Below, piece after piece: positions 11,948-64,000 of a stretch of 64,000 nt of DNA; positions within the stretch are counted from its first letter, which is position 1; each line of letters opens with the position of its first letter. The stretch covers positions 3,542 to 67,541 of the forward strand of contig CAIJLX010000097.1 in the NCBI GenBank assembly GCA_903821695.1, written 5' to 3'. The DNA is from an uncultured Alphaproteobacteria bacterium (lineage in GTDB: Bacteria > Pseudomonadota > Alphaproteobacteria > Rickettsiales > CAIJLX01). The notes under the pieces are model-generated. The model was not told the DNA's origin, did no database searches, and worked only from the letters and a program-made list of their open reading frames with translations. A program made the translations under genes and the position numbers.

Positions 11948-11950
11948 CAT

Positions 11951-12082
11951 ATGATGAATCTCGCTCTTACTGCCATTATCGGTTTCTGCGCTACCGCAGG
12001 TGCCATCGGTTTTACCCATGTGCTGGGTCGCTTCTTGCGTTATCCGGAAAGCTATTATCGCAAGAGACGTAACGATGGATGA
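11951..12082 (+). CDS. unannotated 43-codon ORF encoding a single-TM peptide inside the Mrp-like operon
   Basis: ATGATG at 11951 lies 3 nt after the upstream TAA. It translates to MMNLALTAIIGFCATAGAIGFTHVLGRFLRYPESYYRKRRNDG, a hydrophobic helix with a basic tail. Its TGA (12080-12082) overlaps the ATG (12075) of the next gene (GATGGATGA). The ORF is below the track's length cutoff. Confidence 0.4.
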   Translation: MMNLALTAIIGFCATAGAIGFTHVLGRFLRYPESYYRKRRNDG

Positions 12083-42755: not shown

Positions 42756-42781
42756 TTTTTTGGACTTCATTTGGACTTCAG
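42756..42781 (+). repeat. 26-bp internal island-end repeat, copy A (2 x TTTGGACTTCA)
   Basis: TTTTTTGGACTTCATTTGGACTTCAG is identical to 52878-52903. It lies 5 nt upstream of the integrase ATG. Confidence 0.85.
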
Positions 42782-42785
42782 AAAT

Positions 42786-44024: not shown

Positions 44025-44025
44025 T

Positions 44026-44799
44026 ATGGGATGGAAACTAAAACCCGCTGAATATTCAAGCGTTGAGGCGTATGCGAAAAAACACGGTATCCCCACAACA
44101 GAAGTCCTATTCTTGGCTTCACGGCAGGAAATTGACATCGGTTTTCTAAACGAAAAGGAGTGTCGGGCAAAAACCGGAATCATCGAATACGAAGAAGGCA
44201 TTGGTTACTACTTGTGTCAGGAGCCGGAATATGAGGATGCAATGTGTGCGGAGCCTATTCTTACCATTCCGGCCAACAGCCCTATTTATATTTACTACAG
44301 CCATATCTCTGAGTTGATAAATCACGGTGGCACGACCGTACGCTTTATAAAGTTTGATATAGCTCCCTATTCAAGTGAGGATGGTTTGGAATATCAAACT
44401 ACGTTTGCAGAATTGATGGAGCCTGTAAAAATACAGGCAGGCGGCCTGATGGTGATTACCCAGAAAGCCAGACTTATTAAAAAAATTGAAAAAGAAGCTA
44501 CGAAGGATCAAAAACCAAAGCAAGGCAAGCCATCAAAAGGGCATGAAGTAATAATGCAGGAGCTAAGACGTAGAGGGGAGGCAGGATTACTAAAATCGAA
44601 TGTCACGGATGAAGCCAATCACCTACATAATTGGTATGAAGACTTGCTCAACAAAATGGGTGAAGATATTAAGAAAAAATTACCAACATGGGAAACCATA
44701 CGCGATAACATCTCAAAAGATTTTTATAAATATCATGAGTCGATAAAGCAGACAGAGCCTTTGAAAGCACACAAAAAGAATGAAAATACTGAAGAATAA
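44026..44799 (+). CDS. hypothetical protein (island)
   Basis: 257-aa ORF starting 2 nt after the integrase stop. It is acidic and Lys-rich, and I recognise no family. Confidence 0.55.
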   Translation: MGWKLKPAEYSSVEAYAKKHGIPTTEVLFLASRQEIDIGFLNEKECRAKTGIIEYEEGIGYYLCQEPEYEDAMCAEPILTIPANSPIYIYYSHISELINHGGTTVRFIKFDIAPYSSEDGLEYQTTFAELMEPVKIQAGGLMVITQKARLIKKIEKEATKDQKPKQGKPSKGHEVIMQELRRRGEAGLLKSNVTDEANHLHNWYEDLLNKMGEDIKKKLPTWETIRDNISKDFYKYHESIKQTEPLKAHKKNENTEE

Positions 44800-44924
44800 T
44801 AAGACGATTTATTAGCCGATTTTCTAGCCGATATACTATTTAATAGAACCTATAAAGCAGGGTTGGAGTTCCCTTTTTAGTTGTGCCTAAGATGACCCCC
44901 AGTTCACAAAACTCTGGAGGTATT

Positions 44925-45191
44925 ATGGAACTTCTTTCAACAACGTCATTATCGCAAAAGACACCCACAATCACGCCAATGCTTCTAACCGAAGAAGAGG
45001 CAGCAGCGTACACATCTTTTAGTCGTTCTTTTTTACGCAAGTGTAGAATGACAGGGGCGGCACAAAATGGCATCCCGCAACCGAAGTTTATAAAAATCGG
45101 CAAGAGGGCTATCCGCTACCTAAAGTCGGATCTGGATGAATGGATTTCAAACTTCCAGCGAGTCGAGCATCTAGCCGCACTCGAAAACTAA
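44925..45191 (+). CDS. AlpA/excisionase-family HTH protein
   Basis: The ATG at 44925 follows GGAGG. LLTEEEAAAYTSFSRSFLRKCRMTG....IPQPKFIKIGKRAIRYLKSDLDEWI fits the phage AlpA / HTH_17 excisionase pattern. Confidence 0.7.
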   Translation: MELLSTTSLSQKTPTITPMLLTEEEAAAYTSFSRSFLRKCRMTGAAQNGIPQPKFIKIGKRAIRYLKSDLDEWISNFQRVEHLAALEN

Positions 45192-45227
45192 TCACCAAAA
45201 AAACAATCAGCTTCCCAAGGCAGGAGG

Positions 45228-45371
45228 GGTATCATCACCGCCATAAAAGCAGAGGGCTACCTCACCCTACGCGCTATATCTGAACAGCTTAACCAGCGCG
45301 GAATACCCTCCCCAGAAGGCAAAAACTGGCATCTATGCAGTGTGCATCGGTTGGTGCAGCGGCTTGGTTAG
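45228..45371 (+). pseudogene. remnant of a serine-recombinase 'Recombinase'-domain gene (no start codon)
   Basis: In the same frame, right after the AlpA-like stop: ...GIITAIKAEGYLTLRAISEQLNQRGIPSPEGKNWHLCSVHRLVQRLG*. The LN.RGI.tp.G..W....V..L motif is typical of resolvase/large serine recombinase helper regions. There is no Met upstream and the catalytic domain is missing. Confidence 0.5.
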
Positions 45372-45519
45372 TGGATTGTAATATAATAACAAAATAACAG
45401 GCATCAGCATTTTTTAATAATTTTACTAACATTAACGATATGTTAACCTTTGTATGAAAGAATGGGTAAAGTCCAATAAAGCAATCTACAATAAATAAAA
45501 ACACATGAAGGGGAAAGAT

Positions 45520-48312
45520 ATGGCACTAGACTCAGCAAAAACCATCCTTGATAAACAACCAAACACCCCTTTGGGTGGTGCTGAAATTGACACATTACAG
45601 CCAGTAGATTTATTCGGTGTAGAAGATGCTAATGGTCAAAAACAATTTTTCTCATTTGGTAAGCAGCCGTTGGCTACACGTGATGCAGGTAAAGGAGAAA
45701 AAATCGGTGTTGTAGGTGCAGGTGATGTGTGGGACAAGTTCATACTTCCTACAATCGTGCAACGCGGAGCCGAGGCTTATGTATACGACAAGAAGTTTGA
45801 AGCATCTTGCTGGTTAGAGAAGGATTCTAGCTTAGCACCCGATGAAGCAGAAAAAAACGCGGCACAAGAGCGCGAGCGTTTTCAAGCCCTTATAAAAAAA
45901 GCTGGCAAGCAGGATAGCATCCATATGGTGCAGGGTGGCGTAGGTAATATGCCCAATGACTTGAGTTATGTTATGGTGCTTACCCCACCCTCAAGTCACC
46001 TACCAGTGATAAAACAGGTTATGAAAAGTGGTGTTCCTATCGTTGTTGAGAAGCCTTTAGTAGCTACATCAGCGCAAGCAGATGATTTAGCCAAAATACT
46101 GACAGAAACACCATAACCGCTTTACTGCATTGACTGGCAGGTTATGCACGCACTTCCCGTTTTGGCGGCCAGTGGGCTTAAAGTGCCGTTTGCTGATACA
46201 CTTCAAACAGAAGTTCAAAATGCTGCTGCTTATGCGAGATTCCAGCAAGCATTCGACTTAATGAATGTCAAAGTGATTGATGCGCGGTTTGTAGAAGGCG
46301 GAGAAAATCAGCTTGGCGATATTGAGGCTGCCATGAAAAAACGTCCTGAGCTTTTCGACTACGAAAAAGGAGGCGGTATGTTGTTCGACTTGGCAGTACA
46401 TCCTTTGAACGTACTCGCAACGCTCGGATTTAACTCTACTGGTGTAGATGAAGCCTTTCTTGGAAAGCCAAAGAAAGATGCCAATGGCAACTTCATGGCG
46501 GGTGTTTATGAGCGGTTTGGCAAAGAAGATGGCACTAAAACAGGCGAAACTTATGGTCGTGCCTTTATGCGTATGGGCATTGAAGGTGGTGGGCAGGATA
46601 TAAAAACTACCATCGAAGCTGCGAAAGGAGCCGCCTCTAATGATGGGCGACTGATACTTAACGATGGTAAATATGAGTTGCGGTGGGAGATGTTTCCAAA
46701 TGAAAAAAGCGGCATAGGAAGCAAGCTAGAAATTAAGGAATTGGCTACTGGAGAGGTTATTGCCACTTCAACGCTTGCGGCGGATTGTTATGCTTTAATC
46801 ATGCAAGACATTAGCAACTTTGTAAAAAGCGGAAGCAAAGATGCACCATACTTTCCTGAACACAGAGATATGATACACGCGATTGCCGCTATCCATACAC
46901 TGGCGCGTAGTCAGACAATTTCGACTGGCGAAGAAGTAAGACAACTCAAAATCGATGAATTAAAGGAGGTTGCTATGAATCAAGATAATACTCCACGGAG
47001 TGTGCCTGTAAAAAATATGAGCATAGACAGCACCCTTCCAAAAGATTGGAAAGATGGAACATTTGTTGGTCGTATCATGCTGCCAGAAGGTCCTGCGATA
47101 GTACGCCTAGAAACAGATGGTACTTTGACAGACATCACCCAGAGTTTCCGTACTATGAGTAAGTTGTGTAAAGAAGAAGACCCTGCGGCATCAGCAAAGG
47201 CTGTCACAGGTAGAACTATTGGTAAACTTGAAGATATTCTAAAAAATACATCAGAAGATCCAACCTCGCGTAATAAACCTCGCCTGATTTCGCCTATTGA
47301 TTTACAGACAGTGAAAGCAGCGGGTGTGACTTTTGCTGAATCACTGATTGAACGTGCCGTAGATGAAGCAACAGGTAGAATACCGAATGACCCCGCTGGA
47401 GTAGTGGGGCCAAAACAACAAAAGAAAGATGAAATACGCCAGCAACTCAGAAGTATGCTAGGAGAAGATATTTCGAAGATAAATCCGGGTTCACAAGAAG
47501 CACTTGCCTTATTAGACCACATTACTAAGCCAGTCGAAGAAGGTGGTCTTGGTCTTTCAAAACACTATTTTGCTGTAGGATTGGGAGAGCTGGCAGAAGT
47601 TTTCACAAAAGCAGACACCCTTGCATCTGTGGGCAGCGGCGTTGCGGCTGGATTTCTAGACGATGCAAAGTATGGGTTAAACAATCCAGAGCCAGAAGTC
47701 GTGCTTATCACCTCCCCGACCAAAGACAATAAGGGAGGAAGAGTGGTTGGTGCGGCACTAGGTAACGACATAAACCACAGGACGATTGAAGGAAAGTCAG
47801 CTCTTCTGCTTGGTGAATGTAAAAATCAGAATGGAACTTGTGCTATCGGTCCTTTTATACGTCTCTTTGACAAGAGTTTTTCGCTAGACGATGTTCGCAA
47901 AATGGAAGTCAATTTGCACATTGAAAACAGTGGAAAGCAAGTGTTTTCTGGCACAAATAACATGGCTGAAATTAGTCGTGAACCACAATCTCTTGTTGAC
48001 CAAATGTACGCAGAAAATAAAAGTTATGGCAGTGGGGCAGTGCTTTTCTGTGGCACTACCTGTGTTCCAAAAACACGAGATGACGGGACAGATTTTACAC
48101 ATCGCAAAGGGGATGTTGTCAGCATTACATCAGACAAACTTGGTTCTCTGAGAAATGTTATGCAACATTGTACTGATATTCCACAACCTGAGTTTGACCT
48201 TGATTCTCTGTCTGAAAACCATGCCAAACGCAATTTGTTCACATCCAAGGGGTCATTACAAGAATTGATGGGTAGTCGTAGATCTGAATCTCTGCCTACA
48301 TATCTTTTGTAA
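45520..48312 (+). pseudogene. Gfo/Idh/MocA-type oxidoreductase fused to an FAH-family (fumarylacetoacetate hydrolase-like) domain, interrupted by an in-frame TAA
   Basis: Track ORFs 45505..46116 and 46144..48312 are in the same frame and separated only by the TAA at 46114-46116. The N-terminal part has the Rossmann motifs IGVVGAGDV and VVEKPL. Reading across the stop gives ...ILTETP*PLYCIDWQV..., which continues the same fold. The C-terminal ~430 aa resemble FAH-family proteins (SPIDLQTVKAAGVTFAESLIERAVDE..., GNDINHR, SREP). Confidence 0.6.
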
Positions 48313-48679
48313 AAGGGATGGTGCTTCTGTTCCCAGCAAGGGAGTAAGCTATCAGTTATAGGCGATGATTTTGTTGTGATGCTGAACATATAGTCGTGTG
48401 CACCAGCAATCTTTTCCTAATTTCCCCCTTGTCTTTAACAGTCAATCCCCTATCGTTTCATTGAACAACCAAGCGGTTGTTTTGGAGCTTCAAACTCCAT
48501 CAGGGCGGCTGACATCGGCCGCGAATGATGTCGTCTTCCGACCTTTATGGCCGGAGTGCGATAATGCATGTCCAGCCTTGCGGTAAAGATTATCGCGGTC
48601 ATCCCTGATGATTTTGAAGCTCCGGCTACCAGCACAATTCCGTGTTGGTGGCTTGGGGCTTAATCAATCGGGGGGCGAA

Positions 48680-49702
48680 ATGACATCACTGCTTATATTA
48701 GTACTTTCCATCAGTCTTATTGTCGGCACTATTGCCGTATTTGTGGATTTGCCCACATTAAAAATCACAACACGCACACAGGGTAAAGTCATTGCGGGTA
48801 CTTCTTATCTGCTGCTGTTATTACTCGCGCCTGATGGTACAAAATACGGTCTTTTAGTGATGCTCTGCATGTCATCCATTCTTATTGGATTGTTAAATCT
48901 TGTCTATCCTTGGAAGCGGATAGGCATCCATACCCGAAAAACAGCAGGGTACATACTTCTCTTCGCACTCGTGCCTATGCTTGCTACAAATGCTTTTGAA
49001 ACACAGGATGGGGTTAGAATGCTCAGCTATAAAGCCGAGCAGCAGCGAACCGATAAAGTTGCGATAGAAAAGAAACGGCAAGAAATGCTGGCGCAGGAAG
49101 AAAAGATGAAGCTGGAACAGCCTGAAGCCTATGCAAAAATGATGGCGGATAAAGAGGCAGAAAGTCGTACACAACTAGCGAAGCAGAATGAGGTTAGCCA
49201 AAAAGAAGCGATGACACGTCAGAAAGCGGTAGATAGCCAAGCTGCTGTAGTGAGTACGATTGTCGTGGTTTTGTTTTTTGCTCTTATCGCTTGGATAGGT
49301 TGGCTCGGTTCAGCGATTAAAACCGAGATTTTGGCTGGAGATTTCAAAACGGGTATCGCTCCTATTTACCACATTCCATTCAAGGGGAAGTACATCACAC
49401 TGAAAAGCTCCGATGGTGGAACGAAGATGCTAAAAAAGTGGAAAGTCGAAAAAATATCACTGTCGGAACTGGATGCAGTAGATGAGGTTACGAAAGAGAA
49501 TGAGAAAAAGTTTGGTGGTTCGCTAGGGGCAAGCTTGGTTGGTGGTGCTATTTTCGGTGGCGCAGGATTGTTAGCAGGAGCATTATCTGGTGGAAGCAAA
49601 ACCAAGATAGCTTTCGCAGCCACATTCAAGGATGGCCGCAGGTTTCTAGGCACAGTAGATGGCAAAGAGTTTTTGGTGTTAAAAGCGGCAGCCTTCAAAT
49701 GA
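48680..49702 (+). CDS. hypothetical multi-TM / coiled-coil membrane protein (island cargo)
   Basis: The ATG at 48680 follows GGGGGG. Four N-terminal TM helices are followed by a Lys/Glu/Gln-rich coiled coil (KVAIEKKRQEMLAQEEKMKLEQPEAYAKMMADKEAE), a fifth TM helix, and a C-terminal globular part with a Gly-zipper (GGSLGASLVGGAIFGGAGLLAGALSGG). Confidence 0.6.
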   Translation: MTSLLILVLSISLIVGTIAVFVDLPTLKITTRTQGKVIAGTSYLLLLLLAPDGTKYGLLVMLCMSSILIGLLNLVYPWKRIGIHTRKTAGYILLFALVPMLATNAFETQDGVRMLSYKAEQQRTDKVAIEKKRQEMLAQEEKMKLEQPEAYAKMMADKEAESRTQLAKQNEVSQKEAMTRQKAVDSQAAVVSTIVVVLFFALIAWIGWLGSAIKTEILAGDFKTGIAPIYHIPFKGKYITLKSSDGGTKMLKKWKVEKISLSELDAVDEVTKENEKKFGGSLGASLVGGAIFGGAGLLAGALSGGSKTKIAFAATFKDGRRFLGTVDGKEFLVLKAAAFK

Positions 49703-50187
49703 GCCACAAAGTTTCGCACCTCATACTGCTAACGATATTGCTTTCAGCCTGTCAGAACATAATGCCAAGCGATAAAGGCTACTTGTATGGCACAGCCAAG
49801 GTCATTGATGGTGATACATTGCGGGTGGCTGGGGCTGATATAAGGTTGTTTGGCATTGATGCACCAGAGGTGAGTCAGACCTGCACCAGAAGAGGCGTGG
49901 AATGGTCATGTGGTGAGGTGGCAAAAAAACGCATGATAAAGTTAGCAGAAGGTAAAGTCGTGCGCTGCAATACCAGAGGCCGTGACTCACGCTATCGCCG
50001 CCCCGTGGCAGTGTGCTGGCTTGGTGGTAAAGAGCTGAACCGCATGATGGCGGCTGAAGGTCTGGCAGTAATAGATGAACGCTACCCCACCGATTATCAA
50101 AAAGAGCAAGCAGCAGCCCGCAAAGCAAAACGTGGTGTTTGGGCTGGAGAGTTTGAGCAGCCTAAAGATTGGCGGAAACAGAATTAA
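49699..50187 (+). CDS. SNase-type (thermonuclease family) nuclease, predicted lipoprotein
   Basis: The start overlaps the upstream stop (ATGA). Lipobox LLSAC. VIDGDTLRV, IRLFGIDAPE, RYRRPVAVC and AKRGVWA correspond to staphylococcal-nuclease Ca-binding and catalytic motifs. Confidence 0.8.
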   Translation: MSHKVSHLILLTILLSACQNIMPSDKGYLYGTAKVIDGDTLRVAGADIRLFGIDAPEVSQTCTRRGVEWSCGEVAKKRMIKLAEGKVVRCNTRGRDSRYRRPVAVCWLGGKELNRMMAAEGLAVIDERYPTDYQKEQAAARKAKRGVWAGEFEQPKDWRKQN

Positions 50188-50229
50188 CGACTTACGGACT
50201 TTGTTAGTATATGTTATATAAGGTTAATT

Positions 50230-50988
50230 ATGGCAAAGGCTGGAATAAAACATAAAGACTATAAAAAGCCTCCTATTAAAGAGGCAGTTATAGAGGTGCG
50301 CTTTACTGACAGCCTAAGTAATGCTGCCTTAGAAAAACTAGTCTTAAAGCTGAAATCTAAATTCAGCGTCCAGAAGATGGAAGAGTTTGGGATAAAAATA
50401 TCCCACGAACAAAAGTCTGGGGTAAAAACAGAGCCCTTAAAAACAAGGCTAATCGGTTATAAATTGATTGAAAATGCTGACAGCACGAATGTGGTGCTGC
50501 TTAAACATGATGCTTTTTCTATCTCGCAGCTTGCTCCTTATCGCGGATGGGCTGAATTTTTAGAGAACTTTAAGAAATACCACGACATTTATACACATAA
50601 GCAGCATAAGAAAATAAGTAGAATAGGCGTACGTTTTATCAATAGAATTGATATTCCAGCGAGTGGAAACAAGATTGAGCTTGAAGATTATTTCAATGTC
50701 TTCCCAACACTTCCTAAGAAGGATTTTCCGGACTTTAATCGTTATGTGGTTCAAACCACATCACTTCTCGATACAGAGAAATTGTTGACGATTAACGCTT
50801 ATAGCTATAACGAAGATACGCCACTTATAGACCACTGTTCTATTGTGTTGGATATAGATATTGGGCAAATAAATAATCTGCCACAGAACTCTACAAAACT
50901 ATATCAAGTGTTAGAAGAACTAAGAGAAAAGAAAAACTTTTTCTTTGAAAAACTGATTAAACCTCAATCCAGAAGGTTATTCAAATGA
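50230..50988 (+). CDS. TIGR04255-like uncharacterised protein
   Basis: 252 aa. The N-terminal YKKPPIKEAVIEVRF pattern and the overall size match my memory of the TIGR04255 family. No function is known. Confidence 0.5.
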   Translation: MAKAGIKHKDYKKPPIKEAVIEVRFTDSLSNAALEKLVLKLKSKFSVQKMEEFGIKISHEQKSGVKTEPLKTRLIGYKLIENADSTNVVLLKHDAFSISQLAPYRGWAEFLENFKKYHDIYTHKQHKKISRIGVRFINRIDIPASGNKIELEDYFNVFPTLPKKDFPDFNRYVVQTTSLLDTEKLLTINAYSYNEDTPLIDHCSIVLDIDIGQINNLPQNSTKLYQVLEELREKKNFFFEKLIKPQSRRLFK

Positions 50989-51599
50989 GTGCATTAGCCC
51001 GCTCCCCTTTTTTAAAGCAACAGTCTTCGTCCAAGTCTGAGGTAATATCGTCGAGTATTTATTCAAACTATCCTGACAATTTAGAATCTACTAACGCCAC
51101 AGGAAAGCCAGAAGAGCCTACCAGAACAGAAGAATTAGAAGACCCTTCAACGGAAGAAAGAGTGCTATGTAATCGCGCTGAATTAAAAATCATCGCCTCC
51201 ATATATGCATTGCAACATATAGAATCAAAGGTGCGGACTCAATTGTTTAACCAAATAGATTGGTTGCTTAGTCCTGAAAACTGGGAAGACGAAGATAAGC
51301 TAGCTAATAAAGATTCGTTTAAAACGCTGATTAAATTCATACTTAATTTCCATCCTACCGAAGCTCCTTATTTGGGGTTATCTTCAGAAGGTAATTTACT
51401 CGCTGAATGGCGACAAGAATCAAACAAGTTATCTCTTGAATGCCTTCCACAAGAGAAAACAAAATGGTTCGTTTCTTGCACAATTGATGGTGAAGGAGAG
51501 AGAGCCAGCGGGGAAGCTCCATCTTTGCGACGTTTGCTTAACTTGTTAGAGCCGTATAAAAAAGTGGGTTGGTTTAATGAGTCAGAAAAACATACCTGA
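50985..51599 (+). CDS. hypothetical protein (island cargo)
   Basis: 204 aa. The start overlaps the upstream stop (ATGA). The N-terminus is Ser-rich and acidic and looks disordered; the C-terminal half is globular. I recognise no family. Confidence 0.5.
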   Translation: MSALARSPFLKQQSSSKSEVISSSIYSNYPDNLESTNATGKPEEPTRTEELEDPSTEERVLCNRAELKIIASIYALQHIESKVRTQLFNQIDWLLSPENWEDEDKLANKDSFKTLIKFILNFHPTEAPYLGLSSEGNLLAEWRQESNKLSLECLPQEKTKWFVSCTIDGEGERASGEAPSLRRLLNLLEPYKKVGWFNESEKHT

Positions 51600-52050
51600 T
51601 AGCGATAATGTATTGCGATGGGCGAAGAATGCACATCTGGTCAAAAATCATGATGGAAAGGTTATCGGCTGTTATCATGTCCTATTCACATTGCGTACAG
51701 ACCAAGAATTTATAGACCGCAAAGGTAAAAAAGAGGATTTCTTATCTGTTAACTGGTTAGAGTATTTTACTGGCACCCAAGACGAGCAGCTCAACGCAGC
51801 AGTGAGTGAGTTTAAATCCAAAAGAGGGAATAAACTTCCGAAAAACTCTTATTTCACTCAACTTAATGTTGGAGAGCTCAAAGAACTCTGCCTCAAGCAT
51901 TCGGCCAAAGTCAGGGTAGTTCACGAATCAACAAAAGACAGCCACAGTGCGATTAGACAGTTACCCCAAGACAAAACTATGCTTTTTGATGATTTATGCA
52001 CGGCGGCTTCTAAGAGCCTAATACCAGCCACTAAGTTTGCTTGCAAGTAA
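51577..52050 (+). CDS. hypothetical protein (island cargo)
   Basis: 157 aa, overlapping the upstream gene by 23 nt. The N-terminus IPDSDNVLRWAK... and the FLSVNWLEYF motif look like a recurrent uncharacterised family that I cannot name. Confidence 0.5.
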   Translation: MSQKNIPDSDNVLRWAKNAHLVKNHDGKVIGCYHVLFTLRTDQEFIDRKGKKEDFLSVNWLEYFTGTQDEQLNAAVSEFKSKRGNKLPKNSYFTQLNVGELKELCLKHSAKVRVVHESTKDSHSAIRQLPQDKTMLFDDLCTAASKSLIPATKFACK

Positions 52051-52957: not shown

Positions 52958-53007
52958 AGTGGCGGGAGTGACGGGACTTGAACCCGCGACCTCTGCCGTG
53001 ACAGGGC
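52958..53007 (-). repeat. island att repeat, tRNA-proximal copy
   Basis: 50/50 identity with 42561-42610. It forms the 3' 48 nt of tRNA-Asp plus 2 nt. Confidence 0.9.
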
Positions 53008-53036
53008 AGCGCTCTAACCAACTGAGCTACACCCCC
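52960..53036 (-). tRNA. tRNA-Asp (anticodon GTC)
   Basis: The reverse complement folds as acceptor GGGGGTG/CACTCCC (one G-U pair), D arm GCTC-AGTTGGTTA-GAGC, anticodon arm CTGCC-CTGTCAC-GGCAG, T arm GCGGG-TTCAAGT-CCCGT, discriminator G and CCA. Confidence 0.9.
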
Positions 53037-55560: not shown

Positions 55561-58418
55561 AATTTTTCCGTTTCATCTTTGGCCTGATCAAGCTCGTATT
55601 GTGGATTACGATCCCGCTCGCGCTCAGTATCGGTGGTTTATATATTTATACCCAGACCAAAGATTGGAACAAAGAAGCAAAAATGATCGCACAAGAAGTG
55701 CAGATCGCAACCGGTCGCCAATTGTTTCTGAAGGGCGGCGTCGAATTTAAATTTTTCCCGCGCCCCACTCTTACTATCAGAGAAACGCGCCTCGATAATC
55801 TTCCAGGTGCTGCGAATGATGCATTAGCCAGCATACCACAAATGATTGTGACCCCTAGCCTACTTTCGCTCATCACCGGCGATATGGCGATTGATGATAT
55901 CACGTTAGTTTCCCCTATAATTGCCTTAGAGATTTTACCAGATGGGCGGAAAAGTTGGGACTTAAGTATTGGGCGGACCAATGCTGGTACCACAACCAAC
56001 ACAATGCCTATTAAGCAAATCACGCTGAAGGATGCATGGCTTAAAGGTTATAACCAACACACCAAATATGACACGAAGCTGCTCAAAGTTTCTGGTGTTA
56101 TCATTCCCCAAAGCCTGCAAGGTGCAATGAAATTTGACGGCACGGTTGCCCGTGGTGATGAGCAACCGCTTGGGCTTTCCTTCGATACCGGCGCATTGGT
56201 TTCACTCGGCACGATTCCGCTCACGCTGAATATCAAATCCGGTATTTCTACCTTAACCATAAAAGGCAGCTTAGAAAATATCGGTACCAACAACCCGCAA
56301 TATAACTTCGCCGTCGATGGCCAACTCGATCAAAAACTCTTGCCGTTCGGTAATCGTTTGGCAAAAGCGGTGAGCCCTGCTGTCAAAGTTTCCGGGCAAA
56401 TTGCCGGTACTTCAAAAATGCTCAATCTAAGCAAACTTACACTCGAAGGCACTTCCATTGCCGGCCAAGGCGAAGGCAATATCGATTTAAGCAAAACACG
56501 CCCGGCGATTAAAATAAATCTGCTACTTTCCCAAGTCGCTTTGGAGGCGAATGTGCTATTGCCGCAAGGCGTTGCAACCCTTACCCCCACCGCTTCACCA
56601 GAGCAAGCCGCCGCCAATCCTTCTTATCGCGTGGGCGATATCGGCTTCGGTAAATATCACGAACTTAATTTGCTCAATGATGTTGATATCGTATTCGATC
56701 TCGGCATCACCCAAGCCAAGTTCCAACAAGAATTACTGCGCGATGTGCGCCTCAATATCAGTTCCGTTCCTGCTGGTGGTTTAGAATTACGCAATCTCTC
56801 CGCCAAACTACCTGGCGATACCACCGTCGAAGCCAAAGGCACCATCACCGATGACGGCAGCGTAAGCGATATGGCCGCGCGTTTCGTCGGCAACATCAAA
56901 GTAAATGGCAATAGCCTCAAACAATTTTTAACCTGGCTCAAAGTAAGCCTACCGCCAATCCCTAAAGATAAACTCAATGCCTTCGCCGTTAGTGCAAACG
57001 CCATTCTTTCCAAACGCGAAGTTGCTGTTCCTGCTCTCGTCGCCCGTTTTGATGAAACCAGCATTACCGGCGGCAGCGCGGTGGTTTCGAATGATGCATC
57101 GAAGCCATCACAAGTTTCTTTAGTCATGGATAATTTAAACTTAGATCTCTATCTTCCTAAGTTAGAAGATTTAATTAAAGAAGCAGGCGGCAGCCAGCAA
57201 GAAGCACAATATGAAAAACTAAACTCCATCCAGCGCCGATTTGATTTCCTTCGTGTAGTGCAAACTTCATTTGGTGCCACCGATCTCACCTTCACTATCA
57301 ATAACCTTATTTATAAAGGTGAACAAGTTGCCAAAGCCTCTACCCGCATTCGCTTCGGTGCTGCACAATTAGAACTGACCGATATTGATGTTATCTCTAA
57401 AAACATTCAGCTCCATGGAAAAATCCAAATCGATGCTACAGGCCTGCGTCCTTTCATCAATGCGGATTTGGAGGTACAGGATTTTAACACGGCTGATGTT
57501 CCTGGCATCCGCGTTTTCTTTTCCGAAAAACAAAACGTGGCGTCTGCACCTGCTGAAGGTCAGGCTGCTATCAGCGAACGTTGGTCAAAAGAATTATTAG
57601 ATATGCATGATATGCAGGCCTATGACGGCAAAGCACATCTCTATTTCCGTTCGCTGACACACAAAAATATATTGTTTGAAAACGTCACCGTCCAACTCCA
57701 TTTCCAAGAAAATTTCTTATATGCCGATAGCATCCGTGGCACTGTGTTTGATGGCGGAAAATTCGATGGTAAAGCAGTGCTTAATATTGCGGCTCAACCT
57801 ACTCTCAGCCTCTCATTCGCATTGAGCAATGCAAGCGTGAAAGAAGCGTTGCTGCAATTCTTCAATGTGAAGTCTATCACCGAAGGTCGCTTCAGCACTA
57901 GCGGCAGTATCAGCACAATGGGCAATGATATCCGCAGCATGGTTTCACGCCTGGAAGGCAGTTTGAATTTGATCTTGCGTGGTGCCAAAATTGAAGGATT
58001 TGATCTTGTTGCACTCACCCAATCACTCGCCCAAATTTTAAGTGCAAAACAAATGCGCGATCTCGCCGATGCAGCACTACGCCCCGGTGCACCTGGCTCA
58101 ATGTATTATGATTATGCTGCTGGCAACCTCATTCTTTCCGCCGGTACATTGGTGATGAAAGATCTGCAATTATATTCACCTAATTTTCCGCCGCTTTCTG
58201 CAACTGGCAATGTGAATCTTGCTGGCTGGAATTATGATATCGTACTCAAAACCGGTTTACCATTAGGTGAGAGTGGCGGCTTTACCTTACGCCGGGAAGC
58301 ATTAGACGCCGACGTTCCGCTATTCGCTCGCATTCAAGGCAGCATCGACAACCCAACCTTCATTTGGGAAAAAGGCGCTATTCAGAAATATTGGGAAAAA
58401 CGCTTCTATCAACGTTAA
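55557..58418 (+). CDS. AsmA family protein (second paralogue)
   Basis: 953 aa with an N-terminal TM anchor and a long beta-rich periplasmic region. The C-terminus has an AsmA-like ...IQGSIDNPTF... motif. The start overlaps the metF stop (ATGA). Confidence 0.65.
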   Translation: MKFFRFIFGLIKLVLWITIPLALSIGGLYIYTQTKDWNKEAKMIAQEVQIATGRQLFLKGGVEFKFFPRPTLTIRETRLDNLPGAANDALASIPQMIVTPSLLSLITGDMAIDDITLVSPIIALEILPDGRKSWDLSIGRTNAGTTTNTMPIKQITLKDAWLKGYNQHTKYDTKLLKVSGVIIPQSLQGAMKFDGTVARGDEQPLGLSFDTGALVSLGTIPLTLNIKSGISTLTIKGSLENIGTNNPQYNFAVDGQLDQKLLPFGNRLAKAVSPAVKVSGQIAGTSKMLNLSKLTLEGTSIAGQGEGNIDLSKTRPAIKINLLLSQVALEANVLLPQGVATLTPTASPEQAAANPSYRVGDIGFGKYHELNLLNDVDIVFDLGITQAKFQQELLRDVRLNISSVPAGGLELRNLSAKLPGDTTVEAKGTITDDGSVSDMAARFVGNIKVNGNSLKQFLTWLKVSLPPIPKDKLNAFAVSANAILSKREVAVPALVARFDETSITGGSAVVSNDASKPSQVSLVMDNLNLDLYLPKLEDLIKEAGGSQQEAQYEKLNSIQRRFDFLRVVQTSFGATDLTFTINNLIYKGEQVAKASTRIRFGAAQLELTDIDVISKNIQLHGKIQIDATGLRPFINADLEVQDFNTADVPGIRVFFSEKQNVASAPAEGQAAISERWSKELLDMHDMQAYDGKAHLYFRSLTHKNILFENVTVQLHFQENFLYADSIRGTVFDGGKFDGKAVLNIAAQPTLSLSFALSNASVKEALLQFFNVKSITEGRFSTSGSISTMGNDIRSMVSRLEGSLNLILRGAKIEGFDLVALTQSLAQILSAKQMRDLADAALRPGAPGSMYYDYAAGNLILSAGTLVMKDLQLYSPNFPPLSATGNVNLAGWNYDIVLKTGLPLGESGGFTLRREALDADVPLFARIQGSIDNPTFIWEKGAIQKYWEKRFYQR

Positions 58419-59158
58419 GCAGCGTTTGCGCTTAAGCCTTCCAATACAGAGAGGAATGTTTCCTCCAGCGTTTTACCTTTGGCCTGATATTCCTTCTTGA
58501 ACACTTCGGGCGTTCCCGTGAATACAATATTGCCCGCATGCAACACCGCAATCCGATCACAAATCTGATCCATATCCGCAAGAATATGTGAGCTAAAGAA
58601 AATCGTCCGCCCTGCATCGCGATAGCTTTGTAGCACCCGTTTTAAATAGACGCGCGCCTTAGGATCAAGGCCACTCATCGGCTCATCCAAAATCAACAAT
58701 GGTGTCTCACTCAAAAATGCAGAGATCAATCCGAGTTTCTGGCCCATACCTTTCGAATAACGTGCAATCTTTTGCTGCAAGGCCTTTGGATCCAAATCCA
58801 ACGACTCTGCCATACGCTGCCCTTGCTCTTTTTTATAAGGCTTTTCATAGTATGAAGCCGCAAGCGAAAGAAACTCGTGACCCTTCAGATAAGGCGAAGG
58901 CATAAACTTCTCTGGCAGATAACAAAGATGTCGTCGACTTTTTGCAATTGTATGGTCTTCACCAAATAATTGTATGTTGCCTTTATCCGCTTTCAGCAAA
59001 TCCAAAATAATTTTAATCAGTGTCGTTTTTCCAACACCGTTCAACCCGATCAGACCAAAAATTTCTCCGGGCGCCAATTTAAAATCGACTCCATCCAGAA
59101 CCTTTCGTTTGCCATATTTCTTGGTGATACCATTTATTTCCAATGGTGCTTTTTCCAT
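58415..59158 (-). CDS. ABC transporter ATP-binding protein (ABC-2 type), no adjacent permease
   Basis: Walker A GLNGVGKTT, signature YSKGMGQKL, Walker B LLILDEP and an H-loop SSHIL. The start is 14 nt downstream of the PilP-like gene. The stop overlaps the asmA-like stop (TTAA). Confidence 0.85.
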   Translation of the reverse strand: MEKAPLEINGITKKYGKRKVLDGVDFKLAPGEIFGLIGLNGVGKTTLIKIILDLLKADKGNIQLFGEDHTIAKSRRHLCYLPEKFMPSPYLKGHEFLSLAASYYEKPYKKEQGQRMAESLDLDPKALQQKIARYSKGMGQKLGLISAFLSETPLLILDEPMSGLDPKARVYLKRVLQSYRDAGRTIFFSSHILADMDQICDRIAVLHAGNIVFTGTPEVFKKEYQAKGKTLEETFLSVLEGLSANAA

Positions 59159-59171
59159 AAAGTGTCTCCTT

Positions 59172-60260
59172 TTATTTTACGATCGGGCCTAGCATTACTG
59201 GCGATTGTAGTCTTGGTCTTGGTGCTTCTGGCACTACAGCAGGTGCAGATGCTGGTGGCGGAATTTGCACTTGTCCTGGCTGTTGCCCTGCCGGTGCTGT
59301 TGTTGCTGCTGCAATTGCCGCTTGCTGAGGCGCATCAAAAACAGTGCTTTTTACAAATCCTTCGACAATTTTCATACTTCTACTGACAAATGTTTGGTGC
59401 GGTCCTAACACAAAGCGCACATAACGGCGGTTGCGGTCAACACCGATCAATCCATCTTTCGATACATAGGCAAAACGTGGCACTTCTTGTCCTGGCTTAA
59501 TTTCAAGAGGTATAACCTTCTTTTCCCATTCCGGTGAGATAAAATCAAGCTGCTCTGTCTCCCAAATAAATTCTACCGAATCCTGATTCACACTTGCAAT
59601 TTCAAGCTCTGGGAATTTAGCACCGGCACGGATACGGCGCGAGTTCATCCAAATCGTCCAATTATCAGGTTTATTATAAAGCACCGAATTAAGGAAAAAT
59701 GCTGGCGCTACGCGTGGCACTTTGACTTCAACTGCCACCGCACCAACCGACTGATCGGTAAGCCCGCGTGCAGCATTATAAAGCTGCCTCAATTGCTCCG
59801 ATGGAAACATCAGTGAGCTACGCCATTTGAGCACCTCAAAATTGCTGCCGTTAAATTGGTTCGGATCTTGATTGATGTTCAGCACTTGTTCTTTTGCTTT
59901 TTGAAGTTGCTTTGGCACTGTTTGTGGTGCTTGCTCAATGGCTTTACGAATCTGGTCCGGATTTTCAATTAAGTTCAATACGCTATCTGCTGCATTTTGC
60001 ATGCGCGCTGAAACTCCGTTTGGGTTGACAAAACTCGGCTGCACCGGCGCCTCAACCGGCACCGAAGGCTTGGCCACGGGAACCGCCGCCACTGGTGTAG
60101 GCGCTGGTGCCGGGATAAGTGAGGGTGCTGGGAGAACCGGCGCAGACACAGCGGGCGTAGAACCCGGCAATTCCGGCGGTAAATTTGAAGGCGCTGGAAC
60201 TTGCGCTAATGCAACGTGTGCACAAAAAAACAAACCGATTGCTAGCCCAAAAATTCTCAT
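59172..60260 (-). CDS. secreted Pro-rich protein with PilP/GspC-HR-like core
   Basis: Signal peptide MRIFGLAIGLFFCAHVALAQ. Both ends are Pro/Ala/Val-rich and low-complexity. The core FFLNSVLYNKPDNWTIWMNSRRIRAG..FPELEIASVNQDSVEFIW resembles the PilP / GspC HR-domain pattern. Confidence 0.45.
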   Translation of the reverse strand: MRIFGLAIGLFFCAHVALAQVPAPSNLPPELPGSTPAVSAPVLPAPSLIPAPAPTPVAAVPVAKPSVPVEAPVQPSFVNPNGVSARMQNAADSVLNLIENPDQIRKAIEQAPQTVPKQLQKAKEQVLNINQDPNQFNGSNFEVLKWRSSLMFPSEQLRQLYNAARGLTDQSVGAVAVEVKVPRVAPAFFLNSVLYNKPDNWTIWMNSRRIRAGAKFPELEIASVNQDSVEFIWETEQLDFISPEWEKKVIPLEIKPGQEVPRFAYVSKDGLIGVDRNRRYVRFVLGPHQTFVSRSMKIVEGFVKSTVFDAPQQAAIAAATTAPAGQQPGQVQIPPPASAPAVVPEAPRPRLQSPVMLGPIVK

Positions 60261-60883
60261 TGTTTGCGCACCGTTTTCCAGGTGAACACTACGCTACCTT
60301 CCACCAATACTGGAATACTACTGTTCTGAATTTGAGCTAATACTGCGGGTGAAATTTCAATTTTACGATTCATCACCAGTTTCTCGACGCGGATATAGCC
60401 GGGTAATGTTTCAAACAGCTCCTGCAGGAATGACATCATCAATTCATCCGAAAGCCCGCCGAATGTTAGGGTGATGGTATTAAAATGAGTGATGTAACCT
60501 TTTTGTTCTTGTGTCCCCACCAATGGCGCAACGTTGGTCAATGAAATATCGAGAACGGCTAATCGATAGCGCACTTTCAGGTTTTGTAGAGCAGGTTGCA
60601 AAATCGCAAGCCGCGAGGGCAAATCGCTTAAATTGATGTCGCGCTGCTTATCCGGAATGCGATTATAATGCAGCTGCAGCTGCAGAAATTTATCATTATC
60701 TTCTTCCAGCTTCACGATTTGGTTCTTAGCTAACGCTAGGTCATTTTCAACCTGCGCCAGCGTATCTTCTCTGTTTTGCCGATCATAAAAACTGTACCCC
60801 GTGATAAGCAATGCACCGAGCGCAATGCCACCAACAATCGAGGCGACTTTGATGAGCTCTTCGCGGATAACGACTGTTTTCAT
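60257..60883 (-). CDS. PilO/GspM-like bitopic protein
   Basis: 208 aa with an N-terminal TM helix (VASIVGGIALGALLITGYSF), a coiled coil, then an alpha/beta domain (ITLTFGGLSDELMMSFLQELFETLPGYIRVEKLVM), as in PilO/GspM. It overlaps both neighbours by 4 nt. Confidence 0.5.
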   Translation of the reverse strand: MKTVVIREELIKVASIVGGIALGALLITGYSFYDRQNREDTLAQVENDLALAKNQIVKLEEDNDKFLQLQLHYNRIPDKQRDINLSDLPSRLAILQPALQNLKVRYRLAVLDISLTNVAPLVGTQEQKGYITHFNTITLTFGGLSDELMMSFLQELFETLPGYIRVEKLVMNRKIEISPAVLAQIQNSSIPVLVEGSVVFTWKTVRKQ

Positions 60884-62634
60884 GGCTTAGGAACCAATGG
60901 TTGAGCTGGCACAGGCGCAATGGCTGCGGGCGCAACCGGAATAGCAGGTTTCAGTGGCGCAGGCGTAGGCATCATTTTTGCTGGTGCTTGTACTGGCAAA
61001 GGCGTTGGCTTTTTTTGTTCTGGCCGTGGCATTTCAAACATTGCTTTACGAATGTCCTCCGTTATTTTGCCGCTGATCGTAAGTTGAAGCGTACTTTTTG
61101 TTAGTGTGTTTGCTGGCGCTGCCGCCGTAGAACCGGCTACCGTTGGCCCCCCTTCGACGGATAATTTAAAGTCACCCTGCCCGGGCAAACCTGTAAAGGC
61201 AACTTGCTGCGTTTTAAATGCGTCACGCATGCTCTGTGCGAATGCATTTATTTCTTTCAGATATGCATCGAGAGTTGGCGAACGATTCGGATAATCAATC
61301 GTGCCAATAAATGTAAATTCACTTTCCTGCTTTTTGGTGGCCGGATTTATTCCTTCTGAGGTCGCTATCTGCATCGCAGTATATAACGCTATCGGACCTT
61401 TTGTTTCACCCACCTTTGTTAAAAATTGAAAGGGGACAATCGCATCCTGTGAAAATTGATCATAGAGTGCAACCATTGCCTCTACTTCTGCTTTACGACT
61501 TGCCTGTGCGTCAGCACGTTGTTGAAGCTCGCGTTGTTCCCTTTGAACACGAGTGAGCTTCTCTTGCTCTTCCCCTGTTTTGATATAGGTAACAACAGAA
61601 GTATAAATATTAAAGATAACCAGCAGCACAGAAATAGGGATAAGTGCTGCACCAAAAATTTGCAGAGCAAGTTTTCCTATCACCATTTTTCGAGTGTGTT
61701 CGATTAGCGTTGTGCTCAATCTTAATATCGGCTTTTTGCCTTTACCAAATTGCGCCAATATTACGACATCTGCAAATTTATCGCGTGGCTCTGTTGCATT
61801 CACTAGTCCCAGCTGTCCCGCCACTTCGTGTGGCGTTAACACATAACTATTTGCTACTTTTAATCGCGTTGATTCTAACTGCTTTTTTACTTCCGAAGCT
61901 GTGATAATAAAAATATCCATCCCAGCTTTTTCATCGAAAGCCATTCGGCGGATATATTCCATCGTACTTAGAATTTCTTGCTCGATATGTCCCGCGATCA
62001 CTCCCGGTGCATTGCCACCTACTGGCTGTGCTAACCGCGTAAATAAAAGCCGTCCATTGCGATAAACCACCTGCCGCAGGCCACCGGTTTTATTATGCGT
62101 TACTAGCATTTGCCATTCGGAAGCTTGGGCAACGTTCTCAGTTGCCACCGCTTTTTTAATGGCTTTCACCAACGGTTCGGTTTCAATCGGCAATAAATAA
62201 ATACCAACCAGTTCGTTCGGCAACTCGGCTATCAGCTCAAGCCAATCTGAAAGTGGGGCAACATTGCGTACGGAAAGAAAAAGGAAGTTCCAATCTTTAC
62301 GACCCGTAGTGCTTCGCCCAAGCGGCAACGCGCCTTTAATATCGGTGCGGTCAAATTCTTTTTCTAATCGCCGCGCCACCATTTTGCTGACATTCATCGC
62401 ACTCACTGGCGGTAACGAATGTTGCAGATAGGATTGGTCGGAAACATCCACCAGCACATACACACGTGCTTCGGTGTCACCTAAAAATACTTTTTCGATT
62501 TCCGGTGCGGTGACGTTGTTGAAATAAAAACGCCCTTCAACCTTTCCGGCCACCATATAGACCAGAACCGCACCATCATCTCCCACACTAAGAAGAAATT
62601 TTCGGCCCCTACGTGAGAGTATATCCTTGAGCAT
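60880..62634 (-). CDS. fused PilM/PilN-like or GspL-like bitopic protein with Pro-rich tail
   Basis: 584 aa. A ~320-aa cytoplasmic domain is followed by one TM helix (IFGAALIPISVLLVIFNIYTSVV), a coiled coil (EEQEKLTRVQREQRELQQRADAQASRKAEVE), a periplasmic alpha/beta domain and the C-terminal tail PTPLPVQAPAKMMPTPAPLKPAIPVAPAAIAPVPAQPLVPKP. Confidence 0.45.
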   Translation of the reverse strand: MLKDILSRRGRKFLLSVGDDGAVLVYMVAGKVEGRFYFNNVTAPEIEKVFLGDTEARVYVLVDVSDQSYLQHSLPPVSAMNVSKMVARRLEKEFDRTDIKGALPLGRSTTGRKDWNFLFLSVRNVAPLSDWLELIAELPNELVGIYLLPIETEPLVKAIKKAVATENVAQASEWQMLVTHNKTGGLRQVVYRNGRLLFTRLAQPVGGNAPGVIAGHIEQEILSTMEYIRRMAFDEKAGMDIFIITASEVKKQLESTRLKVANSYVLTPHEVAGQLGLVNATEPRDKFADVVILAQFGKGKKPILRLSTTLIEHTRKMVIGKLALQIFGAALIPISVLLVIFNIYTSVVTYIKTGEEQEKLTRVQREQRELQQRADAQASRKAEVEAMVALYDQFSQDAIVPFQFLTKVGETKGPIALYTAMQIATSEGINPATKKQESEFTFIGTIDYPNRSPTLDAYLKEINAFAQSMRDAFKTQQVAFTGLPGQGDFKLSVEGGPTVAGSTAAAPANTLTKSTLQLTISGKITEDIRKAMFEMPRPEQKKPTPLPVQAPAKMMPTPAPLKPAIPVAPAAIAPVPAQPLVPKP

Positions 62635-62642
62635 GCGCTATC

Positions 62643-63854
62643 TCAGAAATTCATTTTGCTGAAGCTATCATAGAGCGGACCAAATACCGCAGCCGTAATC
62701 CAGAACAACATTACACCCATCACAATTGTGAGAGCAGGCTGAATCAATTCAATCATCGCTTCGACCGAATCATTCACTTCGCGGTCATAGAAGAAGTTTA
62801 CGTTTTCAAGCGCCTGCTCCATTTTGCCACTCTCCTCACCCACTTTGAACATCCGCATCACCAGACTTGGGAACTGGCTCGACACTTGCAGCGAACCGGT
62901 AATTGTATTTCCTTCCGAAACACTTTGGCGAACATAATACACCGCCTCTTTCATCACACGGTTATGCATCACGTTTTCGGATGTTTGAATACATTCAATC
63001 ACATCCATGCCGGCTTTAAATGTAATCGCAAAGAAGTGACAAAACCGCGCCAATTCAATTTTGTGAATCACAGGTCCGATATATGGAATGCGTAGTGCAA
63101 AACGATCGATATTATAGGCAGCAGATTCAGAAGTGCGATAAAGCGTCAGTGTAACCACAAATAGCAATACCGGCATACCCAACAAAATATACCAGTAACT
63201 CACAAATACATCTGAAACAGCAATCAGCGCGCGGCTATAAAACGGTAATTCGAAACCTTGGTTTTTCAAGAAGTCTGTCATCTGTGGCACCACATACAAC
63301 ATCATCAATGCAATCACGCTACTCATCACTACGACAAGAATAATCGGATAGCGCGTTGCAGTTTTAATTTTGCGAACAATCTCGGCCTGCCATTTCAAGT
63401 GGCTAGCCAAGTGGCCAAACGCATCACCCATATTACCGGTACGCTCACCAGCTGAAATTAGCCCCGTAAATACTTCAGAAAATATTTTTGGGTGCTCGCC
63501 TAACGCTTCGGAAAGCAATTTACCCCCCTTCACTGAATCATAAAGTTTGATTACCAATTCGCGTAAGACGTCAGATTCGGAAGCGTCACGCAAATCCGAG
63601 ATCGCATCGAGTATCGGAACACCGGCGCGTTCCAGCTGTTCCATATGCACGCAAAAAATAATCAGGTCGCGGGTGGAAACCGATTTTCGGAACAACGTAA
63701 ACTTGGAAGTGCTGATGACAATTTCTTTAGATTTCAGCAGATCAAGGCCAAGCTTGCGCAGCTTTTCCTGTAGCTCTGTTTCGTTCTCCGCCGTCAAATT
63801 TCCTTTGACCGTCGCGCCACGTACATTCAATGCTTTATAGTTATAGGTCGGCAT
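62643..63854 (-). CDS. GspF/PilC family platform protein (type II secretion / type IV pilus)
   Basis: 403 aa. The N-terminus YNYKALNVRGATVKGNLTAENETELQEKLRKLGLDLL is typical of GspF/PilC. It has two GspF-type repeats and 3 TM helices, and ends in ...AAVFGPLYD.... Confidence 0.85.
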   Translation of the reverse strand: MPTYNYKALNVRGATVKGNLTAENETELQEKLRKLGLDLLKSKEIVISTSKFTLFRKSVSTRDLIIFCVHMEQLERAGVPILDAISDLRDASESDVLRELVIKLYDSVKGGKLLSEALGEHPKIFSEVFTGLISAGERTGNMGDAFGHLASHLKWQAEIVRKIKTATRYPIILVVVMSSVIALMMLYVVPQMTDFLKNQGFELPFYSRALIAVSDVFVSYWYILLGMPVLLFVVTLTLYRTSESAAYNIDRFALRIPYIGPVIHKIELARFCHFFAITFKAGMDVIECIQTSENVMHNRVMKEAVYYVRQSVSEGNTITGSLQVSSQFPSLVMRMFKVGEESGKMEQALENVNFFYDREVNDSVEAMIELIQPALTIVMGVMLFWITAAVFGPLYDSFSKMNF

Positions 63855-64000
63855 AAAGAGATAATGCCCTGATAACAGATATCTTTCAATGTTTTATGGT
63901 AGTTATCAGAAAGAAGGAGTCTAATCCCCACGCCCCGGGGTATTGCGCTCTATTTGACGTGCCCTGATATAGCGCTCGCTGTTGCTGCCCATAGGGGATA

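Follow-up and report, generated by a model that had tools for sequence, protein, structure and literature searches.

Introduction

The inner-membrane platforms of type IVa pili (T4aP; Pseudomonas, Myxococcus, Thermus), of mannose-sensitive haemagglutinin (MSH) pili (Vibrio) and of type II secretion systems (T2SS) are the closest described counterparts of a locus that we examined in a 64,000-nucleotide stretch of DNA (the window, hereafter) from an uncultured alphaproteobacterium of the Rickettsiales (assembly GCA_903821695.1, contig CAIJLX010000097.1, positions 3,542 to 67,541). The locus consists of a PilC/GspF-type gene (gene 1), three partner genes (P2, P3 and P4) and a gene for an orphan ABC ATPase. 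In T4aP, pilMNOPQ form an operon separate from pilB and pilC, PilM is a separate actin-like protein of the cytoplasm, which grips PilN by its N-terminal peptide, PilN and PilO are a pair of bitopic proteins with coiled coils and with ferredoxin-like domains in the periplasm, and PilP is an inner-membrane lipoprotein whose beta-sandwich binds the N0 domain of the secretin. The msh genes run in the order mshI-J-K-L-M-N-E-G, and MshI has the architecture of a fused PilM-PilN. A T2SS combines a GspE-F-L-M-C platform, in which GspL carries an actin-like domain, a transmembrane (TM) segment and a periplasmic domain on one chain, with gspG-K in the cluster, a GspC that has HR plus a PDZ domain or coiled coil, and no retraction ATPase.

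Type IV pili have been reported from basal and environmental Rickettsiales and inferred for the ancestor of the order (Schön et al. 2022, PMC9352585; Castelli et al. 2024, PMC10847448), and they have been proposed as the ancestral host-attachment device of these bacteria (PMC9352585, PMC10847448). UBA6187, an Athabascaceae metagenome-assembled genome (MAG) according to Schön et al. and the source of one of our loci (L029), is among the pilus-bearing basal members (PMC9352585). The widespread gene clusters in supplementary file 18 of that study comprise a pilA-like gene, pilB, pilC, pilD and a secretin; canonical pilM, pilQ and pilT clusters appear in only three columns of the same table, and pilO and pilP are absent (PMC9352585). 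MacSyFinder assigned pilB and pilC to type IV pili in more than 80% of cluster members, and the secretin cluster carried KEGG K12282 (mshL) in 90% of its members, with MacSyFinder calling gspD in 10% and pilQ in 5% (PMC9352585). Because no widespread pilM, pilN, pilO or pilP is found in the published tables, the machine looks incomplete.

We propose that the region described here is probably the inner-membrane platform and periplasmic alignment part of a retractile T4aP/MSH-like pilus characteristic of environmental Rickettsiales-like alphaproteobacteria. P2, P3 and P4 are the obvious candidates for the missing pilM, pilN, pilO and pilP, and they plausibly connect the inner-membrane motor with the outer-membrane pore. 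A preliminary description of the window had seen in these genes a divergent, possibly lineage-specific machine. The layout is lineage-specific and strongly conserved, but the kind of machine is known, as type IV pili have been published for basal Rickettsiales (PMC9352585, PMC10847448). The pilus is already known in the clade, and its alignment subcomplex is fused and has diverged past standard annotation.

Results

The locus and its immediate surroundings contain the following features.

62643-63854, minus strand: gene 1, PilC/GspF-type, 403 amino acids (aa), with two T2SSF repeats and three hydrophobic segments
60880-62634, minus strand: P2 (gene 2), 584 aa, a fused PilM-PilN of GspL/MshI-type architecture
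60257-60883, minus strand: P3 (gene 3), 208 aa, bitopic, presumed PilO/GspM-type partner of the P2 periplasmic module
59172-60260, minus strand: P4 (gene 4), 362 aa, secreted, presumed periplasmic connector analogous to PilP / GspC-HR
58415-59158, minus strand: orphan ABC ATPase of DrrA/ABC-2 type, 247 aa, with which the conserved module ends
63918..64000, minus strand: 3' end of an upstream gene truncated at the window edge, whose product is homologous to a 245-aa protein without a Pfam family
63861..63889, minus strand: promoter-like motif TTGAAA-N17-CATTAT, from a consensus scan and from conservation in the window's own subclade

Gene 1 and P2 are separated by 8 nucleotides (nt), and P2/P3 and P3/P4 overlap by 4 nt each, exactly the near-contiguous run of four minus-strand genes that had been reported. 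These four are not the whole unit, as they had been taken to be: the ABC ATPase gene lies 13 nt past P4 and holds this position in 71-72 of 81 related loci. The database gene calls for P2 and P4 (568 aa and 301 aa) are shorter than their open reading frames (ORFs); we preferred the longer starts because homologues keep both the N-terminal motif of P2 and the P4 signal peptide.

Conservation of the module was assessed over 81 non-redundant loci (about 80 species-level MAGs), with ATPase counts taken over 75 loci. One order recurs in 70 or more of the ~80 loci: PilB-like ATPase, PilC, P2, P3, P4, orphan ABC ATPase. P2 was present in 81 loci, P3 in 77 and P4 in 74; PilC preceded the trio in 73, and P3 directly followed P2 in 77. 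In 70 of 75 loci, the gene immediately upstream of pilC encodes an ATPase of 600-700 aa, and its stop codon often abuts or overlaps the next start codon. In relatives, this ATPase scored 507-523 bits against PilB (cutoff 676) and 510-516 bits against GspE (cutoff 630); this near equality of scores would also suit a T2SS. The ATPases of L001 and L002 exceeded the cutoff of the MshE-related c-di-GMP motif NF053729 (50-54 bits; cutoff 38). As a separate observation, L017 (3245-6712) and 14 other loci share a conserved gene for a protein of ~1155 aa, which immediately precedes the gene for the PilB-like ATPase on the same strand.

On the other side of the module, about half of the loci carry T2SSE-family ATPase ORFs of PilT/PilU length (~370-450 aa) right after the ABC gene, usually two and convergent. 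The pair in L002 passes TIGR01420 (416 and 469 bits; cutoff 319). Because PilT/PilU-type retraction ATPases adjoin the module in these relatives, a retractile pilus would be indicated rather than a secretion system; classical T2SS have no such ATPases. A TPR protein weakly similar to PilW/Tgl is often encoded next after the PilT/PilU-length ORFs. In two Midichloriaceae loci (L079, L081), prepilin genes adjoin the module, and these prepilins are long (265-287 residues as stop-to-stop frames). L016 has a small secretin near the module, the one that was found, which scored 85 bits against GspD, 71 against PilQ and 48 against MshL, and L034 has a prepilin peptidase at the edge of the locus. GspG-K pseudopilins were found neither in the window nor in 80 loci, bar one weak match; they do not lie between the F-like and L-like genes or elsewhere. 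Thus, the combination of features that marks a T2SS is not what these loci contain.

The upstream end of the unit is cut by the window edge. A same-strand gene upstream of gene 1 has its last 27 codons in the window, with its stop codon (TAG, 63918-63920) 63 nt away from gene 1. The C-terminus of this frame (ERYIRARQIERNTPGRGD, then stop) matches the end of a 245-aa protein of L086 (EIYIRAREKERNTPGRGD, then stop); in the C-terminal pair that we compared, the L086 protein ends in IYIRAREKERNTPGRGD and the frame leaving the window in RYIRARQIERNTPGRGD. In the closest relative, L086/L087 (P2 73% identical), the gene for this 245-aa protein (6340-7077 in L086) lies between the PilB-like ATPase and pilC. 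Since the upstream frame matches this gene and the ATPase lies beyond it in relatives, the unit appears to extend upstream, and the ATPase missing from the window would be a window-edge effect. A Pfam search with the 245-aa protein gave no match. Its N-terminus (MIKNLIIIIEDQ) is vaguely receiver-like in look.

The operon therefore does not, as far as can be read from the DNA, visibly start at the GspF-like gene. The start had been placed there on account of an 8-bp inverted repeat (63869-76 / 63902-09). The repeat is present, and we rejected it as a regulatory signal because the closest relatives do not conserve its arm 1; with the same-strand gene 63 nt upstream, it does not mark the beginning of the unit. 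By our own estimate, an 8-bp repeat within ~40 nt arises by chance in a 150-nt stretch about 1 time in 10. The motif TTGAAA-N17-CATTAT may serve as an internal promoter for a leaderless transcript: its -10 element ends 6 nt before the ATG of gene 1, and there is no Shine-Dalgarno sequence. Motif and spacing are kept in the window, L086, L088/L089 and L001, with a spacer of varying sequence; the motif is absent upstream of pilC in the other 68 loci examined, and the promoter-consensus scan found such sites in the region to be no commoner than in shuffled sequence. Transfer RNA and Rfam scans of the intergenic region upstream of gene 1 found nothing.

Gene 1 is a PilC/GspF-type inner-membrane platform protein. 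Two stretches match Pfam T2SSF (E 2e-45), which confirms the two-repeat GspF/PilC protein first described, and hydropathy gives three hydrophobic segments. Over its full length, gene 1 scored 301 bits against the NCBIfam GspF equivalog TIGR02120 (cutoff 424) and 242 and 221 bits against two NCBIfam PilC models (cutoff 700), in each case below the cutoff. Its identity to E. coli GspF is 24% (E 4e-43).

In keeping with the first impression that the three partners are poorly recognisable, none of P2, P3 and P4 belongs to a Pfam or NCBIfam family. P2 was best resolved by structure prediction. An AlphaFold (AF2) model built from 36 homologues reached a mean predicted local distance difference test (pLDDT) score of 82. 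It begins with an alpha/beta actin-like cytoplasmic domain (~residues 1-305), continues with an unbroken helix (309-396) that holds the TM segment and then a coiled coil, and ends in a periplasmic ferredoxin-like domain (~402-533; alpha-beta-beta-alpha-beta-beta, that is, (alpha-beta-beta)x2) and a disordered Pro-rich tail. Hydropathy and sequence likewise give a single TM segment (322-340) and the Pro-rich tail. Foldseek comparison of the model with the PDB returned PilM (5eou, 2ych, 3jc8_Ma), the cytoplasmic domain of GspL/EpsL (GspL-cyto; 4pht, 1w97, 1yf5), PulL (5tkw) and FtsA at E-values from 2e-8 to 3e-6, with PilM at 2e-8. TMt values were 0.60-0.67 to EpsL/GspL-cyto versus 0.55-0.58 to PilM, so that the match to GspL is as good as or better than that to PilM, a point in favour of a T2SS.

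Because of the architecture of the model and its matches to PilM, GspL and FtsA, P2 is, as modelled, a fused PilM-PilN of GspL type, and the topology of a PilM-PilN fusion or GspL proposed earlier is upheld. The actin-like fold of PilM is present but fused to a PilN-like part, unlike the separate PilM of T4aP, and P2 has the one-chain architecture of GspL in its fold. At the level of sequence, P2 has no Pfam T2SSL match and no detected similarity to E. coli GspL, and its profile reached PilN (3jc8_Na) with an E-value of only 0.53. The family comprises 2073 clusters at 50% identity (E ≤ 1e-3), 645 of them with E ≤ 1e-30. Homologues came only from metagenomes and from MAGs labelled Rickettsiales or Alphaproteobacteria; a tblastn search of 72,556 plasmids gave no match.

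P3 begins with a short cytoplasmic N-terminus, crosses the membrane once (TM segment 10-28) and continues as a coiled coil that leads to a globular domain at the C-terminus. When the P3 and P2 families were compared with hhalign, P3 36-163 aligned with P2 354-476 (Prob 82%, E 1e-5), and controls against unrelated families gave 0.1-0.4%. The P3 family also matched Pfam T2SSM (E 0.0087) where the TM segment and the coiled coil lie. PDB profile searches with full-length P3 and with its globular part gave coiled-coil or irrelevant matches, and the family profile found nothing significant in the single E. coli GspM and HofO sequences. From its topology, its invariant position and these weak similarities, we presume P3 to be the PilO/GspM-type partner.

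In P4, a signal peptide is followed by a Pro-rich linker, then by a conserved helix (SLMF...) and a beta-rich core (~185-305); the tail is again rich in Pro. Hydropathy places the signal-like segment at residues 3-21, and the family alignment indicates a signal peptide of the cleavable type, with variable Cys residues and no conserved lipobox Cys. No PDZ domain was found in P4. Among P4 members, T2SSB (the HR-like C-terminal domain of GspB) was the commonest Pfam match (10 of 70 at E 10 or better; best E 0.0026); it lies outside the 25 families most often matched by 72 P3 members. The P4 family consensus aligned with positions 2-52 of the 60 of T2SSB (PF16537) at 14.5 bits (E 0.029), under the gathering threshold of 28.4 bits. 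A PDB match to GspB/OutB (4wfw; E 0.044-0.1) spans the most conserved P4 motif, P.FYL.S..Y...W.V..NG...L.V..I..D.V, and the T2SSB/GspB-HR-like matches all fall in one consistent region. An alignment with the GspC HR region was non-significant, and the family profile found nothing significant in the single E. coli GspC and HofP sequences. A profile search with the P4 core in 5.8 billion proteins recovered family members only, none with a Pfam domain. From these comparisons, P4 would be a periplasmic beta-sandwich, possibly HR-like.

Homologues of P4 range from ~230 to 700 aa. Those of 500-700 aa (L002 12342-14126, L005 3897-5384, L006 9656-11758) contain long inserts, made of beta-flower/DUF3659-type repeats or of low-complexity or coiled-coil sequence, between the N-terminal helix and the beta-rich core and also inside the core. 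Because the inserts lie between and within conserved parts, P4 is modular.

The ABC ATPase matches Pfam ABC_tran (E 3e-24) and scored 152 bits against NCBIfam drrA and 145 bits against GldA, both below cutoff. No permease gene adjoins it. Of the 81 loci, 72 have the gene linked to the module, and in 71 of these it follows P4 on the same strand. In L056, L064 and L074, the gene is divergent and upstream of pilB, still adjacent to the cluster, and in L088 it is split (139 + 111 aa).

Discussion

The locus resembles the PilM-N-O-P complex of T4aP in the PilM fold of the P2 N-domain, its PilN-like module, the bitopic P3, the secreted P4 and the order M, N, O, P, and also in the PilT/PilU retraction ATPases that adjoin the module in relatives. 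In contrast to T4aP, PilM and PilN are fused, P2-P4 lack Pfam, NCBIfam or PDB-profile similarity to their counterparts, and P4 is without the lipobox of PilP. No pilQ follows; the genes form one unit with pilB and pilC rather than a separate pilMNOPQ operon, and a conserved ABC ATPase is appended.

In the pilus that we envisage, a PilB-like extension ATPase, with the MshE-type c-di-GMP-binding N-terminal motif seen in relatives, would be encoded just outside the window, upstream. The hexamer of this c-di-GMP-responsive ATPase would dock on PilC as well as on the P2 actin-like domain, much as GspE does on GspL and PilB on PilM. P2 would cross the membrane once, and its coiled coil and ferredoxin-like domain would pair with P3 in the manner of PilN-PilO and GspL-GspM. 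Secreted, Pro-rich P4 would bind P2-P3, and its beta-sandwich core would reach the outer-membrane secretin in the role of PilP or the GspC HR. Pilins, prepilin peptidase, secretin and PilT/PilU would be encoded elsewhere in this genome, PilT/PilU would retract the fibre, and the conserved ABC ATPase would serve as an accessory.

Several observations weigh against this proposal. A search of the whole window for a secretin, a GspE/PilT-type ATPase, a prepilin peptidase and a prepilin-motif gene found none. The preliminary description had said so, correctly, of the downstream side; the lack of an ATPase would be due to the window edge. The pilus assignment consequently leans on comparison with relatives of 30-73% identity. 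The best-scoring NCBIfam model for gene 1 is the GspF of T2SS, not PilC. P3 showed no significant similarity to PilO, PilN or GspM in Pfam scans of its individual members or in PDB profile searches, and once the coiled coil was removed its alignment with P2 fell to 31 columns in the same register (Prob 0.9%, E 0.063). P3 had been called PilO/GspM-like: the topology and position agree, but the profile match is driven by the coiled coil. We had also considered P3 and P2 as paralogues on the strength of the 82% match, a reading that we downgraded because of the value for the globular part alone.

P4 adds further points of this kind. All of its family matches are sub-threshold, and a titin FN3 domain scores as well as the HR-like alignment over an overlapping stretch (E 6.6e-4). 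An AF2 model from 13 homologues was of low confidence (pLDDT 48), and Foldseek with it returned only noise. PilP is a lipoprotein and P4 is not; P4 also has neither the N-terminal TM anchor nor the PDZ domain of GspC. Of the PilP/GspC-HR-like protein first described, the secretion and the Pro-rich ends hold, and the HR-like core has weak backing from the sub-threshold T2SSB and GspB matches.

Among other explanations, a pilus of the MSH type (MshE-MshG-MshI-MshJ-MshK with an unlinked MshL) is possible if doubtful; P2 would then be MshI, P3 MshJ and P4 MshK, with extension gated by c-di-GMP. This comparison was made by description only. The c-di-GMP motif of the relatives' ATPase fits such a pilus, although some PilB proteins carry MshEN domains too. 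The fused PilM-PilN-type protein followed by small partners is shared with MshI and its neighbours; the order of the msh genes differs from that of the module, the secretin is unlinked, and no mshM- or mshN-like genes were seen. The secretin evidence points both ways: the KEGG assignment of the clade's secretin is mshL, but MacSyFinder calls a minority of its members gspD or pilQ (PMC9352585), and the L016 secretin scores lowest against MshL.

It is unlikely that gene 1 (PilC) and P2 are the only true counterparts of known platform proteins, with P3, P4 and the ABC ATPase being lineage-specific accessories that lack PilO/GspM and PilP/HR folds and serve, for example, in peptidoglycan anchoring, localisation or export of a pilus-associated factor. 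Such a view would suit the lack of any significant sequence or structure link between P3 or P4 and known families, the variable length of P4 and the beta-flower repeats in some of its members, its not being a lipoprotein, and a permease-less ABC ATPase that falls outside the textbook T4aP core and has one precedent that we found, Myxococcus PilGHI. On the other hand, P2, P3 and P4 are co-located almost throughout the loci with 4-nt overlaps, the topologies of P3 and P4 match PilO and PilP exactly, and the weak matches (T2SSM for P3, T2SSB/GspB for P4) fit the function. In addition, the genomes have pilB, pilC, pilD, pilin and secretin but no widespread pilN, pilO or pilP, so the role must be filled.

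That the genes form a T2SS core (GspE-F-L-M-C) exporting proteins via a short pseudopilus, with no surface pilus, is very unlikely: the higher GspF than PilC score of gene 1, the GspL architecture of P2, the confinement of P4 matches to GspB and, non-significantly, the GspC HR, and the GspE score of the relatives' ATPase are set against an unmet GspF equivalog cutoff, the lack of GspL sequence similarity in P2, a P4 without PDZ domain or TM anchor, no pseudopilin cluster, long prepilins in L079 and L081, retraction ATPases beside the module in about half of the loci and the assignment of pilB and pilC to type IV pili by MacSyFinder (PMC9352585).

We return to the retractile T4aP/MSH-like pilus as the probable identity of the system. 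Going beyond it, one may speculate, tentatively and with more doubt than confidence, that the locus represents a distinct, hitherto undescribed branch of the type IV filament superfamily, of Rickettsiales type. In an alignment complex of its own, PilM and PilN would be joined in one chain, an analogue would stand for PilO, and a soluble connector that is not a lipoprotein would replace PilP; an ABC ATPase would be an integral and required component, c-di-GMP would gate the system, and free-living and ectosymbiotic Rickettsiales would use it for attachment to hosts. The P2 family alone, at ~2000 clusters, has no Pfam model, and defining the P2-P4 families would improve the detection of secretion systems by TXSScan/MacSyFinder across a large set of environmental alphaproteobacteria.

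That an orphan ABC ATPase so constantly accompanies the module hints at an accessory function in pilus biogenesis that has gone unrecognised and in which the ATPase may take part. Wu and colleagues are said to have found in 1998 that Myxococcus pilH is needed for piliation. An ABC transporter within a type IV pilus cluster is known from Myxococcus xanthus (PilG-PilH-PilI), with PilH the closest precedent (PMC6060248). The resemblance is one of gene context only, in that an ABC-type ATPase is encoded within the pilus gene cluster; here, unlike in Myxococcus, the ATPase stands alone with no adjacent permease.

Other features of the window

A 2144-aa protein (739-7173, minus strand), probably an adhesin secreted by a type I system, combines ~11 cadherin repeats with PKD, laminin-G and RTX calcium-binding repeats; along with the pilus, it may matter for attachment. 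A stretch on the plus strand (42771-52000), probably an integrated mobile element, begins with a tyrosine integrase gene (42771-44024) and continues at a lower G+C content (0.39-0.45 versus ~0.47); a tRNA-Asp gene lies at 52960-53036. A 1237-aa ORF (18977-22690, minus strand) has as its sole Pfam signal a sub-threshold CHAP match (E 4e-5, residues 612-644). Three consecutive Proton_antipo_M genes (Nuo/Mrp-type; 8988-13778, plus strand) lie in a stretch with an AT skew of -0.19 to -0.23.

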